DNA of 46,155 nt from Chitinophagaceae bacterium. GTDB taxonomy: Bacteria > Bacteroidota > Bacteroidia > Chitinophagales > Chitinophagaceae. Below the pieces are notes generated by a model. That model saw only the letters and a list, made by a program, of their open reading frames with translations, was not told where the DNA came from and made no database searches. The translations under genes and the position numbers were made by a program. The stretch covers positions 1 to 46,155 of the forward strand of contig JBDSBL010000088.1 of NCBI GenBank assembly GCA_039921625.1, read 5' to 3'. Numbering within the stretch: the first letter of the stretch is position 1; every line of letters starts with the position of its first letter. Shown one piece after another: positions 34,232 through 43,298 of the stretch.

Positions 34232-35707
34232 ATGATCAAGCGTGGAATATTCTTTCTGTTTTTCTTTGGTTTTCTTTCCTGTGCCCAAGCTCAGTCTGTA
34301 TCAAAAAATACGGTTGTAGCAAAGGATTCTGTTGTTGCATCTATTAGCAAACAATACAGCGATCCATCCTTTTTACGCAAAATATTTTTAGGCTCCAATT
34401 ACCGGAAGACCTGGGAAACTCCGGTCCGTTTTCCTGTGTTTCATTTAAAAGAAAAGGGATTTACCATAAAGGATTTGGGGGGTGGCATGCAAACCAAATC
34501 GCTACGACTTGAAGATAAAAATGGCGAGGAATGGGTATTGCGCTCTTTGGAAAAGGATGTGGAAAAAGCAGTACCGGAAAAGGTGCAGGGTACTATCGGT
34601 CAAAAGGTGGCTCAGGATATGGTGTCTGGTTCCCAACCATATGCACCACTTACTATTCACCGTCTTGCAGAGGCAGTAGGGGTCGTTTCAGCTGATCCGG
34701 TTTATTATTACATTCCTGATGATCCCGCTTTTGGTGACTACAGAAAACAATTTGCAAACACCGTATGTATGTTGGAGCAACGGGAGCCCACACCTGACAA
34801 TTCTGAAACGGACAATACTGAAAAACTGGTAAAGGAATTATTGGAAGGAAAAGATCATATGGTATGGCAGGAAAACCTCCTAAAAGCCCGGTTGCTTGAT
34901 ATGTTGATTGCAGATTGGGACCGTCATGCCGACCAGTGGAGGTGGGGTAAGAAAGAAACTGATAGCGGCACTTATTTTTATCCTATACCCCGCGATCGGG
35001 ATCAGGCCTACTTTGAATCGAAAGGCTTGCTGGTAAAAACAGCGAAGTTTTTTTTATTGCATTTTTTATCAGAATTCAAACCAAAGGTTACTTCTTTTAA
35101 AGCCTTAAATACAAAAGCATGGAGTTTTGATGCATATTTATTAAATGATCTTGACAGGAAAGATTGGACGCGAATCACAACAAATTTTCAAAACCAGTTA
35201 ACAGATGATGTAATACACGAGGCAATCTTGAAAATGCCTGCTCCAATTTATGCACTAGATGGTCTTGAAACTGAATCCATTCTTAGAGCCCGCCGGGATC
35301 AGTTGCTGAAAGGTGCCTTGAATTATTACGATGATCAAGCGAGGTCCGTATCCATTATTGGCAGTGAAGATCCTGAACTTTATCATATCACCGGAGGCAA
35401 AGACAGCCTTACTGTAATGGTGTATAATTTATCCTCAAAATATAAGAACCTGGTAATGTATCACCGTACTTTTTTGCCAAAAGAAACTAAGCTTATTAAG
35501 CTAATGTCTTTAGATGGTGATGATCAATTTGTAATTGATAAATCTGTTTCGTCTAAAATAAAATTTGAAATTGATGGAGGTCAAGGCAACAACATTTTTG
35601 ATCTAAAAGGAAACGTAAAAACTGAAATTTTTTACAGTAACGAAACGGCAAAAACCTACTTAGAAATTTTAAAAACTTACTTACGCATTGGCATTCGATT
35701 TATTTAA
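34232..35707 (+). CDS. Secreted hypothetical protein with atypical kinase-like motifs, resembling the central region of Bacteroidota metallophosphoesterase-Omp85 fusion proteins
   Basis: Signal peptide ending AQA; GGGMQTKSLRL, WVLRS, LLDMLIADWDRHADQWRW and PIPRDRDQAY. Confidence 0.65.
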   Translation: MIKRGIFFLFFFGFLSCAQAQSVSKNTVVAKDSVVASISKQYSDPSFLRKIFLGSNYRKTWETPVRFPVFHLKEKGFTIKDLGGGMQTKSLRLEDKNGEEWVLRSLEKDVEKAVPEKVQGTIGQKVAQDMVSGSQPYAPLTIHRLAEAVGVVSADPVYYYIPDDPAFGDYRKQFANTVCMLEQREPTPDNSETDNTEKLVKELLEGKDHMVWQENLLKARLLDMLIADWDRHADQWRWGKKETDSGTYFYPIPRDRDQAYFESKGLLVKTAKFFLLHFLSEFKPKVTSFKALNTKAWSFDAYLLNDLDRKDWTRITTNFQNQLTDDVIHEAILKMPAPIYALDGLETESILRARRDQLLKGALNYYDDQARSVSIIGSEDPELYHITGGKDSLTVMVYNLSSKYKNLVMYHRTFLPKETKLIKLMSLDGDDQFVIDKSVSSKIKFEIDGGQGNNIFDLKGNVKTEIFYSNETAKTYLEILKTYLRIGIRFI

Positions 35708-37611: not shown

Positions 37612-37943
37612 AGCAGTAGATTTTGTCCGGTTTTTTACTAAGCTAATACTAAAAGTACCGGCACTGTTTTAAAAATAATCAGACCGCTAATTTATTGGAG
37701 CACCAGTAAGTATTTAGCTTATTATTTTTTTTATGTTTTTCGTCAAACCATTTATCATAATTGCACATGTAAAGAACACATTGTATTTTCATATTAAATC
37801 TTTTAATCTGCACCATAGGTAATTTAAATTTCATCTCTATTTATTCGATAGTTTTTCTCCTTACCAACATTACATCCATCCCCATCAAAGCTTATTCATT
37901 CCTCCGTACAGTTATTTGTTTTTAAATTTTTAAAACAAAAAAT

Positions 37944-38519
37944 ATGTCAGATTGGAAAGGTATTGTCGGCAAAAGTTTTTCTCCCACAGGCTTTGATACG
38001 TATTGTCACGAACTACAATGGACAGCATGGAGGCCCTCATTTATTGTGTTGCACAACACGGCCATTCCATCCCTTGCTCAAAGGCCTAATGGATTGACGC
38101 TGCAACACATAAAAGGCCTTGAATCTTTTTACAGGGATGTGCAAAAATGGAAAGGAGGCCCGCATTTATTTATTGATGATAAACAGATCTGGGTATTTAC
38201 ACCTTTGACATTATCCGGCACACATTCTCCTTCATGGAACAAGCTGGCATTGGGTTTTGAAATGCTGGGCAATTATGAAACGGAAGCATTTGACAGTGGT
38301 CGCGGGTTAAAAGTGCGAAAAAATGCAGTCGCGGCTATAGCAACTCTTAGTGGTGTATTGGGCATAGATCCGCATACATTACGGCTGCACCGCGAAGATC
38401 CGTTGACTACTCACGCCTGCCCTGGAAAAAATGTACGCAAGCTGGAGGTAATGCAGGAAGTAATGGATCTTCTTATTGCAAGGCATGCAGGAGAACATCC
38501 AATAAAACCCGTTGCGTAA
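37944..38519 (+). CDS. N-acetylmuramoyl-L-alanine amidase (Amidase_2/PGRP, T7-lysozyme-like), no signal peptide
   Basis: Zn ligands IVLHNT (H37), LRLHRE and HACPG; GPHLFID, GTHSPSWN and GFEMLG. Confidence 0.85.
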   Translation: MSDWKGIVGKSFSPTGFDTYCHELQWTAWRPSFIVLHNTAIPSLAQRPNGLTLQHIKGLESFYRDVQKWKGGPHLFIDDKQIWVFTPLTLSGTHSPSWNKLALGFEMLGNYETEAFDSGRGLKVRKNAVAAIATLSGVLGIDPHTLRLHREDPLTTHACPGKNVRKLEVMQEVMDLLIARHAGEHPIKPVA

Positions 38520-38571
38520 AAGAAGTATAATTATAAAGTTGGGTTTATTCAATTATTTAAAAATTTAAAAT

Positions 38572-39729
38572 ATGTCACATTGGGGATCATTAGCAGACCG
38601 TTATGAAAGTAAAAAAAGGCGGAAGATTTTAGCATTGGATGGGGGAGGCATTCGGGGAGTGATCACACTCCAAATATTGGCTGAAATGGAAAAGCAGTTA
38701 AAGGAAAAATCCGGCAAGGGAGATGCTTTTCGACTAAGCGATTTCTTTGATTATATAGGAGGCACCAGTACCGGGGCCATTATTGCTGCCGGCCTTTCTA
38801 TTGGCATGTCTGTACAGGAGTTGTTGGATTTTTATTTGCACAAAGGCAAAGATATGTTCGATAAGAATTTTTTATTGAAGCAGTGGAAATCCTTGTACGG
38901 ATCAGGACCGTTGATTGAAATGTTGAAGGAAACTTTTGGAGCAGATACAACTATGGAAATCGACAATGGTAAATTTAAATCTTTGCTATTGATAGTTACT
39001 ATGAACCGTACTACGGATTCTCCATGGCCTATTACCAACAATCCTTTAGCAAAATACAACGACCGTTCGAGGCCTGATTGCAACGCCAAAATAAAGTTGT
39101 TTCAATTGGTACGGGCCAGTACGGCTGCGCCGGTATATTTTCCTCCGGAAACAATGCAGTGGGACGAGAACGATCCGGCAAAAACATTTGTATTTGTAGA
39201 TGGAGGAGTAACGCCGTATAACAACCCGGCTTTCTTAATGTATCGGATGGCCACGCAACCTGCGTATAATTTGGAGTGGGAGATAGGAGAAGATAAATTG
39301 CTGATCGTATCAGTAGGTACGGGCTCTGCACCTACCTCAGGCGAGTACCACAATTTGTTGGAATCAGTAAAAGGATTGCCAACCAACTTAATGTATGCCA
39401 TGCAGGTTGATCAGGATATTAATTGCCGCACAGTTGGCCGTTGTACTTTTGGAGCTCCTATTGATCGGGAATTAAAAGACCTGGTACCAATGGATAGCAA
39501 TGGAAATGTGCTGGACCTTTCTCAAGATACAAAACGCCATTTTTTATATGTGCGCTACAATGCAGATTTAAGCCAGGAGGCGTTAAATGAATTAAATTTA
39601 AATCATATAGAATCGGATCATGTTCGGGAAATGGATTCTGTAAAATACATAGATCAACTGCAGGAAGTAGGAAAGGCAGTAGGAGAGAAACAAGTGTCAG
39701 TAACCCATTTTGGTTCGTTCGTTTCTTAA
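38572..39729 (+). CDS. Patatin-like phospholipase
   Basis: ILALDGGGIRG oxyanion loop, GTSTG (S66), RASTAAPVYF, VDGG (D210), NNP and VSVGTG. Confidence 0.93.
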   Translation: MSHWGSLADRYESKKRRKILALDGGGIRGVITLQILAEMEKQLKEKSGKGDAFRLSDFFDYIGGTSTGAIIAAGLSIGMSVQELLDFYLHKGKDMFDKNFLLKQWKSLYGSGPLIEMLKETFGADTTMEIDNGKFKSLLLIVTMNRTTDSPWPITNNPLAKYNDRSRPDCNAKIKLFQLVRASTAAPVYFPPETMQWDENDPAKTFVFVDGGVTPYNNPAFLMYRMATQPAYNLEWEIGEDKLLIVSVGTGSAPTSGEYHNLLESVKGLPTNLMYAMQVDQDINCRTVGRCTFGAPIDRELKDLVPMDSNGNVLDLSQDTKRHFLYVRYNADLSQEALNELNLNHIESDHVREMDSVKYIDQLQEVGKAVGEKQVSVTHFGSFVS

Positions 39730-39738
39730 TAAAATTTT

Positions 39739-41736
39739 ATGCAGGCATTTATTGTTCGACCATTTGGTATCAAGCAGGATATTGATTTTGAAAAGGTAGA
39801 AAGGGAATTAATCCAACCGGCCCTCAAGGCGGTAAATGTGGCTGGAGCTACTACTGCAAAAATTGTAGAAGCAGGCAATATCAGAGAAGATATGTTTAGT
39901 CAGTTGTTGCTGGCAGATTTGGTAATTGCAGATCTTTCTATTCACAACGCTAACGTATTTTATGAGTTGGGTATACGTCATGCGCTTCGCGATAAGAAAA
40001 CCTTCCTTATTCGCAGCAATAAAGACGAAATACCATTTGATTTAAAAACGGACCGTTATCTTTCTTACGATGCGGCAAACCCTGCCGCTTCAATACCTTC
40101 TTTAATAGAAGGTTTGAAAGCAACTCTTCTTTCAGACAGGCAGGACAGCCCCGTCTTTTTTATGCTCCCCAAATTAGCAGCTCAGGACCCTGATCTTTTT
40201 TTGGTAGTACCATCAGACTTTGGTGAAGAAGTAGAAGTGGCTAAAGCGGGCAAGCAATTAGGAAAACTTGCCTTGCTTGCCTTTGAAGCACAGGGTTTCC
40301 CCTGGGAAATGCAGGCATTGCGTAGCATTGGAGATGTACTTTATTGTTTGAAAAACTTTGAAGATGCGCTAATTATTTGGGAAAAAGTAAGAACGCGTTA
40401 TCCATTAGATTTGGATGCTAATGACCGATTGGCTACCTGTTATCAACGGCTGGCCGAAAGGGAAATGACTACTAACGAAGCCAATGGACTGGAATTACTG
40501 GCACTATCTGACCTGGCGGTAAAAAGAATTCTTGATAATTATTTGAAACTGGATAAAAACAAACGGGCTGAGATTTATTCATTAAAAGCAAGAAATGCAA
40601 AAACAAAATGGATCAATTCCTGGCGAAACTCTTCCAAAGAAGATCGAGCAAAAAATGCATTGCATTCCCCTTTTTTAGAAGAAGCGTATAAAGATTATTT
40701 GCATGGTTATACAGAAGATTTAAATCACTTTTATTCGGGCATCAACGCACTTGGTTTGCTCACTACCATTATTTCTTTAGCCCAAAGTGTACCACAGGAG
40801 TGGAGCGGTGAATATGATTCGGATGAGGAAGCCGCCAACGCATTGAAAAAATATATTGACCAACAAACAAAACTGATTACCGTAGTACAAATATCCATTG
40901 ATTCAGAAAAAATGCGGATGGAAAGTGAACAGAAAAAGGATCCCTGGCTGAGTATGACTGAAGCAGATTTTGCCTGCCTTACACAATCAAGACCGCAGCG
41001 CATTACCAGCATTTATCAGAAAGTAATAGGGGAAGCAAATGATCTAAATTTTGATGCCGCCAAAAGGCAATTACTAATTTATGAACAACTAAATGTGCTG
41101 CCTGCCAATATTAGTGCTGCCCTTTCTGCCTTTGCGGCTGTAAAAGAAAATGAAGTAGTTAAAAAACAATATTACTTTTTATTTACCGGCCATATGATTG
41201 ACAAAAGCGACCGGGCCATTCCAAGATTTCCCCCGGCAAAAGAAGCAGCTGTTCGTGCTGCTATAATGGAAGCAGTGGAAAAGGAAAAAGCATCCATTAG
41301 CGGGTCTATATTAGGAATAGCTGGAGGAGCTTGTGGTGGTGATATTATTTTCCATGAAGTGTGTGGTGAACTAGGCATTCCTAGCGAATTGCTATTGGCT
41401 TTGCCACGTGAATTGTTTGTGGTAAACTCAGTGCAACGTGCTGGTGTTGCATGGGTAAACAGGTTCAATAGTCTATTTACAAAACTTCCTAAAAAGGTGT
41501 TATCCCAAACCGAAGAGATGCCTAAATGGCTGCAGAAAAAAGAAAACTACAGCATTTGGGAACGCAATAATTTGTGGATGCTAAACAATGGGCTAGCCTG
41601 CGGCGGAATGCAGCTTTGCTTATTTGCTTTGTGGGATGGAAAGATGGGTGACGGCGTAGGAGGTACGCAACATATGGTGGAGGAAGCACAAAAAAGAGGC
41701 GCTAAAACAATCATTATTGATATAAATAAATTGTAG
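39739..41736 (+). CDS. Multidomain protein: NDT/deoxyribohydrolase-like N-terminus, DUF4071 (MAP3K TRAF-binding)/TPR sensor region, C-terminal SLOG-like domain
   Basis: AFIVRPFG, ADLVIADLS..NANVFYELGIRHA and IPFD; HFYSGINAL and DPWLSMTEAD; LFTGHMID..RFP, GACGGDIIFHE, WERNN and LWDG..GDG.GGT. Confidence 0.75.
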   Translation: MQAFIVRPFGIKQDIDFEKVERELIQPALKAVNVAGATTAKIVEAGNIREDMFSQLLLADLVIADLSIHNANVFYELGIRHALRDKKTFLIRSNKDEIPFDLKTDRYLSYDAANPAASIPSLIEGLKATLLSDRQDSPVFFMLPKLAAQDPDLFLVVPSDFGEEVEVAKAGKQLGKLALLAFEAQGFPWEMQALRSIGDVLYCLKNFEDALIIWEKVRTRYPLDLDANDRLATCYQRLAEREMTTNEANGLELLALSDLAVKRILDNYLKLDKNKRAEIYSLKARNAKTKWINSWRNSSKEDRAKNALHSPFLEEAYKDYLHGYTEDLNHFYSGINALGLLTTIISLAQSVPQEWSGEYDSDEEAANALKKYIDQQTKLITVVQISIDSEKMRMESEQKKDPWLSMTEADFACLTQSRPQRITSIYQKVIGEANDLNFDAAKRQLLIYEQLNVLPANISAALSAFAAVKENEVVKKQYYFLFTGHMIDKSDRAIPRFPPAKEAAVRAAIMEAVEKEKASISGSILGIAGGACGGDIIFHEVCGELGIPSELLLALPRELFVVNSVQRAGVAWVNRFNSLFTKLPKKVLSQTEEMPKWLQKKENYSIWERNNLWMLNNGLACGGMQLCLFALWDGKMGDGVGGTQHMVEEAQKRGAKTIIIDINKL

Positions 41737-43216: not shown

Positions 43217-43224
43217 ATAAAGTG

Positions 43225-43298
43225 TGACCGCGTCAGGATTCAAACCTGAAACCTTCTGATCCGTAGTCAGATGCTCTATTCAATTGAGCTACGCAGCC
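43225..43298 (-). tRNA. tRNA-Arg (ACG)
   Basis: Reverse complement is GGCTGCGTAGCTCAATTGAATAGAGCATCTGACTACGGATCAGAAGGTTTCAGGTTTGAATCCTGACGCGGTCA. It forms a cloverleaf with anticodon ACG; CCA is not encoded; TATTTTTG promoter at 43310-43317. Confidence 0.96.

Follow-up and report, generated by a model that had tools for sequence, protein, structure and literature searches.

The 46,155-nucleotide window analyzed here (JBDSBL010000088.1 positions 1 to 46,155; GCA_039921625.1, Chitinophagaceae bacterium) contains a cassette of three consecutive genes encoding an amidase, a patatin phospholipase and a 665-aa protein, hereafter the core, which joins an NDT-like head, a tetratricopeptide repeat (TPR) middle region and a SLOG tail. 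Comparison with other genomes indicates that the conserved unit is the pair formed by the patatin and the NDT-TPR-SLOG protein, not the trio, and that the amidase is probably an optional neighbor of this pair. Our tentative reading, to which we give a little less than an even chance, is that the pair constitutes a nucleotide-signaling abortive-infection module beside which the amidase is dispensable. The features concerned are the following.

37944..38519, + strand: Amidase_2 (PGRP-like N-acetylmuramoyl-L-alanine amidase), 191 aa, from Pfam, a PGRP-LB match and linkage tests; a neighbor outside the conserved module.
38572..39729, + strand: patatin phospholipase, 385 aa, from Pfam, a CapV-like fold and the S66/D210 dyad; predicted effector.
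39739-41736, + strand: whole gene of the 665-aa core protein (NDT-TPR-SLOG), from its open reading frame (ORF) and fold matches.
39739..40164, + strand: MilB/NDT-like N-glycosidase domain, core residues 1-142, with N70-x-N72 and E76, from structural alignment and invariant columns.
40207..41163, + strand: TPR-S or ASK1-like TPR solenoid, core residues 157-475, predicted sensor, from Pfam TPR-S and a match to ASK1 (5ulm).
41164..41736, + strand: YpsA/YspA-type SLOG domain, core residues 476-665, predicted nucleotide receptor, from a match to YpsA (2nx2) and Foldseek.

A search for the core over species genomes (20 of 64 parts) found at least 592 relatives; the 80 best loci among them are the core loci referred to throughout. 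Patatin is encoded at 52 of them (one as a short fragment, one convergent and two downstream) and at 47 of the 70 that have at least 1.5 kb upstream, so that the linkage of patatin and core expected by the initial annotation exists in other genomes. Twelve phylum labels (12) are represented among the patatin partners, which group according to phylum in a quick, not maximum-likelihood, tree. Patatin presence takes 18 changes on the core tree, against 19.9 in shuffles, and paired cores occur in all parts of the tree; a number of changes taken as no fewer than in shuffles fits an old pairing that was often lost. Pairwise identities of patatin and core correlate (Mantel r 0.35), a correlation that counts as weak because kin share both proteins. 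Cores without patatin sometimes adjoin SLATT or CHAT genes.

The reverse test used nine family loci picked by their patatin alone, one of which (G310) is also among the 80 core loci. SLOG lies directly downstream at seven of the nine: within a full core at three, alone at two, before an NDT-TPR-S gene at one, and before a ThsB-type TIR gene and a TIR-TPR-S gene at one. Thirty-nine longer patatin relatives include four patatin-TPR-SLOG fusions, seven proteins with TIR and about a dozen with ParA/nSTAND, and in both plasmid records with a close patatin this gene adjoins TPR-S genes. Across all the arrangements seen, SLOG accompanies this patatin clade, whether as part of the sensor protein, as a protein of its own, joined to the patatin or next to TIR genes; this association, which is new here, suggests that SLOG gates the lipase.

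Some of the individual arrangements are elaborate. A Rhodococcus plasmid (L277:123-7131) encodes nSTAND-WD40 and NDT-TPR-S proteins followed by a SLOG-patatin fusion, and on a Rhizobium plasmid the gene order is SLATT, muramidase, patatin, NDT-TPR-S, SLOG pieces being located upstream at a distance of a few genes. In G966, an operon (L295:5255-13236) encodes patatin, SLOG, ThsB-type TIR, TIR-TPR-S, SIR2-TIR and nSTAND proteins, a Thoeris-like layout in which SLOG is split off and the patatin would be the effector.

The NDT-TPR-SLOG anatomy first assigned to the core from its sequence is supported by an AlphaFold2 model built on 33 sequences (mean pLDDT, the predicted local distance difference test score, 85.6). 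In structural alignments of this model (VIA-align), residues 1-142 match MilB (Z 12.4, root-mean-square deviation (rmsd) 3.5, 136 residues aligned), and the head also resembles NDT (Z 12.2) and TIR domains (Z 10.9). Residues 157-476 match the central regulatory region of ASK1 (5ulm; Z 19.0, rmsd 3.7, 262 aligned), and residues 476-665 match YpsA (2nx2; Z 17.4, rmsd 2.8, 158 aligned; Foldseek probability 1.00). Over residues 5-472 the best structural match is the regulatory region of human ASK1 (MAP3K5; Z 17.8), at 10-11% identity; beyond this region, ASK1 has PH and kinase domains. Pfam places TPR-S (PF20308) at residues 206-340 (38.4 bits, cut-off 27.6) but has no call for either the head or the tail, and a PDB sequence search with the core profile gave only TPR matches, at E above 0.06.

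All 33 aligned sequences carry N70, N72 and E76; this alignment provides the fair count, as counts of NANVFYE are biased among loci fetched by the NANVFYE pattern. The head is the most conserved domain of the core (mean identity 63%) and the TPR region the most variable (39%), while the SLOG tail is present at 79 of the 80 core loci. Stand-alone SLOG relatives show a weak YAcAr match, under the cut-off. With a threshold of E 0.001, the core family numbers 3639 proteins, many of which match a single domain, and the nearest named homologs are from Chitinophagaceae. The genome of the window encodes a second protein with an NDT-like head (G000:C194:20815-21174, L007; 34% over residues 4-121, open frame of 423 aa).

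All 47 patatin partners compared retain the motifs GTSTG (S66) and DGG (D210), and the top Foldseek match of the protein is AbCapV (E 1.9e-20). Patatins act as cyclic-dinucleotide effectors in cyclic oligonucleotide-based antiphage signaling systems (CBASS). The window patatin shares the fold and dyad of CapV, an effector of type I CBASS, but is 24% identical to it and scores 129.1 bits with the CBASS_lipase model (NF041079), under the cut-off of 200.

The amidase family of the window is absent from all 80 core loci (tblastn and a hidden Markov model (HMM) of 128 relatives), among them the 41 with at least 900 nt before an upstream patatin, and from the nine patatin-picked loci; none of the 39 longer patatin relatives carries an amidase of any kind. 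Conversely, one of 59 amidase loci has a patatin next to it (L089) and none has a core; no patatin is found at the 38 with at least 1 kb downstream. L089 repeats the upstream order of the window, with flanking genes 64-67% identical, the amidase 86% and the patatin start 89%, and its contig ends there. Two of 44 genomes chosen from the 80 core loci hold the amidase, neither at its core locus, and in G609 the amidase is on contig C29 and the patatin-core pair on C22. The amidase was found in 3 of 300 family genomes. Its absence from core loci and its separate contig in G609 thus point to a lineage-level neighbor, and the initial annotation's reading of amidase, patatin and core as one system is not supported.

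The amidase nevertheless keeps H37/H74/E106/H149/C159, conserved in 128 of 128 aligned relatives; we take H37, E106, H149 and C159 to be the zinc ligands and catalytic acid. It matches PGRP-LB (E 0.0015). A phage endolysin was considered and rejected, since neither 50,697 phage records nor viral contigs gave a match. At 6 of the 59 amidase loci (L090-L092, L103, L133, L147), members of the family are divergent to contractile-injection tail-sheath and tail-tube genes, where the amidase may be a release lysin.

The locus was at first thought to fit no named system. This is too strong, because a TPR-S family with patatin and SLOG partners has been catalogued and NDT-TPR is the architecture of the ThsI effector. 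According to a later preprint, Burroughs and Aravind listed in 2020 NDT-TPR proteins whose partners are patatin or YspA/SLOG. That preprint names TIR, YspA/LSDAT SLOG, patatin and calcineurin as the TPR-S partner set, and its re-analysis of 78 of their operons gives 5 YspA-Tpr and 4 patatin-Tpr assemblies, each type with one member from Bacteroidota (bioRxiv 10.1101/2023.05.26.542521). With these TPR-S-centered conflict systems, a predicted family known here via citing preprints, the locus shares TPR-S, a MilB/NDT-like head with a glutamate (E76), an adjacent patatin and a fused SLOG. By its domain content, the locus is a member of the predicted TPR-S systems.

The tested TPR-S members are BcTir/Tpr and ThsI of type VIII Thoeris (bioRxiv 10.1101/2023.05.26.542521; 10.64898/2025.12.03.692087). 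BcTpr from Bacillus cereus (415 aa) has a MilB-like head with an N-x-N...E motif followed by TPR and is partnered by a TIR protein; it is reported to make an isomer of cyclic ADP-ribose (cADPR) and deplete NAD+, and its N82 and E86 are required for production of the isomer and for defense (bioRxiv 10.1101/2023.05.26.542521). Core residues N72 and E76 are spaced as N82 and E86, a comparison by residue numbers only. BcTir/Tpr has a TIR partner and no SLOG, whereas the core has a SLOG and the window no TIR. ThsI is described as an effector composed of a cytidine monophosphate (CMP)-hydrolase, MilB-like, and the TPR that Aravind and colleagues had predicted (bioRxiv 10.64898/2025.12.03.692087), an architecture that the core shares by fold and by the description of ThsI, not by its sequence. 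Phospholipases are included in the 29 types of effector that this preprint predicts. Type VIII Thoeris has an adjacent TIR (ThsB) gene; the window has none and adds a SLOG tail and a patatin partner. With no TIR gene in the window, the locus is not Thoeris by definition. In type I Thoeris, the SLOG of ThsA binds 3'cADPR. It is described as receiving an NAD-derived signal and thereby gating the effector (bioRxiv 10.64898/2025.12.03.692087). That SLOG is fused to SIR2, a domain found in none of the three cassette proteins, whereas the window SLOG is YpsA-type and fused to NDT-TPR. NDT-like domains also serve as retron effectors. As stated from the outset, the window's ORFs include neither the CD-NTase of CBASS nor a reverse transcriptase beside the NDT domain as in retrons, and its six frames contain no TIR_2-type or ThsB-like match. 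The locus most likely works like Thoeris, yet it is neither Thoeris nor CBASS by definition.

PADLOC, recommended in the initial annotation, named no system at the locus, although its phospholipase-effector model and, weakly, its TIR-effector model matched. DS-2, a weak NCBIfam match, was rejected as CBASS with a diadenylate cyclase (CBASS-DAC according to PMC13092281 and PMC13069673). The available portions of PMC8195603 and 10.1101/2022.07.19.500537 contain nothing on this system, and no experimental test of a patatin + NDT-TPR-SLOG locus was found in the literature, most subscription journals lying outside the search.

In the proposed abortive-infection module, the variable TPR-S region would sense infection and release the head domain. 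The MilB/NDT-like head (N72, E76) would then cut NAD+ into an ADP-ribose isomer, as reported for BcTpr, and the SLOG tail would bind this ADP-ribose-type product as the ThsA SLOG does 3'cADPR. Ligand-bound SLOG would in turn activate the patatin, leading to degradation of the inner membrane and death of the infected cell. Signal maker and receptor would be fused in the core, standing in for the TIR gene of Thoeris. This scheme draws on domain shuffling, on the exchange of NDT-TPR-S and TIR beside patatin-SLOG and on the reported cADPR isomer of BcTpr. A TIR census based on a TIR_2-type HMM and one ThsB-like query, which other TIRs may escape, gave TIR_2-type matches at 23 of the 80 core loci, including 13 of the 52 with patatin; the other 39 patatin loci have none within about 7 kb. 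Since these 39 loci and the window are without TIR, a local signal maker other than TIR would be needed.

Several observations weigh against this scheme. BcTpr alone is reported to have given no protection (bioRxiv 10.1101/2023.05.26.542521), and ThsI is reported to be switched on by cADPR from an adjacent TIR gene (Yirmiya et al., bioRxiv 10.64898/2025.12.03.692087). In the patatin-TPR-SLOG fusions the patatin occupies the NDT slot, which fits NDT as an effector, not a signal maker. Patatin is missing beside 23 of 74 scored cores, and 18 of the 80 core loci have neither patatin nor TIR. Two of the nine patatin-picked loci are SLOG-free (one with a convergent NDT-TPR-S gene, one with nothing), two further patatins from the Acidobacteria phylum have no SLOG neighbor, and at L292 and L293 a patatin and a stand-alone SLOG lie amid housekeeping genes, where 13 kb of sequence contain neither NDT nor TIR genes. 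Both trees, that of the core and that of the patatin, group by phylum, a pattern nearer to old inheritance with loss than to recent transfer. Finally, the window itself is housekeeping DNA and not a defense island: its 37 other ORFs gave no real defense hits and one OmpA cross-match with PADLOC.

A distinctly less probable but serious alternative is a ThsI-like arrangement with dual effectors, in which TPR-S and SLOG would receive an outside signal (a metabolite induced by phage, or the product of a TIR protein acting in trans), the NDT head would drain a nucleotide pool and the patatin would be a second effector. It has a precedent in ThsI, a CMP-hydrolase + TPR effector answering cADPR, and agrees with the replacement of the NDT head by patatin in fusions, the many cores that stand alone, the TIR_2-type genes at 23 of 80 loci and the two TIR_2 proteins encoded on other contigs (C97 and C76) of the same genome. 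That genome (84.8% complete), however, has no ThsB_TIR match, TIR is lacking in the window and near 39 of 52 patatin loci, and the tight tracking of SLOG with patatin would be unexplained unless SLOG serves the patatin. It is unlikely that the amidase acts as a lysis accessory, one of several interchangeable hydrolases, cutting peptidoglycan after the patatin has opened the inner membrane. In its favor are the 52-nt gap, the intact amidase motifs, the lack of a hydrophobic leader and the conserved order in L089 despite flanks only 64-67% identical, together with non-homologous wall hydrolases elsewhere: an intact muramidase that immediately precedes the patatin on the Rhizobium plasmid, a broken muramidase some 400 nt ahead of the patatin in L028, an Amidase_2+SH3 gene two genes upstream in L042, a convergent CHAP+PG-binding gene in L015 and, in L013, a muramidase at a distance of about 7 kb. 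Given 97 Amidase_2 and Muramidase matches in 466 Mb of 79 genomes, the loci hold 2 in 1.03 Mb against 0.215 expected (P about 0.02), but this crude Poisson test makes no distinction between variable islands and random DNA, and a remnant accounts for one of its two hits. Such neighbors, which concern at most a few percent of loci, make an optional lysis role for the amidase conceivable; the absence of its family from the core loci (also those with room for it) and the patatin-picked loci, of patatin from the 38 amidase loci with downstream sequence, and of the amidase from the loci of both core genomes that hold it and from the 39 patatin relatives argues against it.

Also improbable is a module that answers non-phage stress (redox or envelope) or serves inter-microbial conflict by remodeling lipids instead of killing. 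The ASK1 match of the first 472 core residues (Z 17.8) and the housekeeping surroundings in the window are consistent with such a role, and neither the 80 viral loci retained nor the 56 plasmid records include a full-length relative, which also agrees with it. Neighbors and fusion partners of the family are, however, immune domains (TIR, SLATT, nSTAND, NACHT, CHAT, DUF4062), both tested relatives are anti-phage, and the spread is very patchy. An extended form of the abortive-infection reading, which we regard as a long shot, would make the locus a TIR-free Thoeris-like system in which the NDT/MilB enzyme makes a new ADP-ribose isomer, a detachable YpsA-type SLOG activates a CapV-like phospholipase and interchangeable hydrolases (the amidase here, the muramidase in Rhizobium) finish self-lysis; it would be a bacterial working counterpart of the ASK1 regulatory region.

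If the abortive-infection reading is true, immune signals would be made not only by TIR and CD-NTase domains but also by NDT/MilB-fold enzymes, and a SLOG adaptor could wire patatin to NAD-derived signals. The locus bears on a disagreement between two preprints, in which an NDT-TPR protein makes the signal or only receives it, and this question could be cleanly tested at a locus that has no TIR and whose effector is a separate protein open to assay. The core family is also large, and the fold of its first 470 residues is common to human ASK1.

The distribution is patchy, as anticipated: none of 60 relatives has the full-length core. A close patatin occurs in 9 of 400 genomes of the family, in none of 300 genomes across the order (stricter cut-off) and, in another phylum, in 2 of 250 genomes besides the center genome. 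Immune-type neighbors occur in other genomes. Among co-oriented neighbors at core loci (175 ORFs scanned, many spurious), SLATT/DUF4231 occurs in 5 loci, accompanied elsewhere by TIR, CAP12-TIR, DUF4062 (reported as an NADase in 10.64898/2026.09.04.749371), NACHT, nSTAND, iSTAND and caspase/CHAT genes; many core loci lie in ordinary DNA. At three loci (L039:5408-9004, L053:5420-9004, L035:951-5300), a ParA-like ATPase and nSTAND1 are fused before the core or TPR-S-patatin, with a TIR gene upstream; ParA-nSTAND is also fused to close patatins. A TIR/NDT-like protein of 235-286 aa without Pfam hit lies beside the pair in L025:8158-8862, L057:6144-7001 and L062:3387-4097.

Within the window, ORFs, Pfam and alignments confirm the initial description of the cassette: three + strand genes with intact catalytic-type motifs, separated by 52 nt (amidase-patatin) and 9 nt (patatin-core) and flanked by minus-strand PhoX and fatty-acid desaturase genes. 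Pfam E values are 1.9e-7 for Amidase_2, 1.2e-27 for Patatin and 2e-9 for TPR-S (PF20308). The proteins have no signal peptide, as judged solely by a hydrophobicity scan. Promoter-like sites at the cassette number 11 against 11.6 expected by chance, and the terminator scan was likewise at chance level. A mobile element was rejected: no terminal repeats were convincing, and the GC content of the cassette (0.41-0.45) resembles that of the window (0.39). No contigs joining across the cassette were found in 4 runs. No empty site was found either; within the genus, the flanks lack synteny at 29 desaturase loci and 5 PhoX loci. The flanking desaturase is present in 58 of 71 genus genomes and a PhoX gene in 4 of 71; these two tallies, and no other result, include the unpublished genome G660.

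A tRNA-Arg(ACG) gene at 43224-43298, 1.5 kb past the cassette, borders a variable stretch that also holds this PhoX gene found in 4 of 71 genomes. Two 28-nt stretches across the amidase and patatin start codons (37928-37955 and 38556-38583) are 82% alike, which may reflect A-rich initiation regions or a trace of recombination joining the genes. Upstream, 34232-35707 encodes a 491-aa secreted-type protein of no clear Pfam family, which is syntenic in L089.

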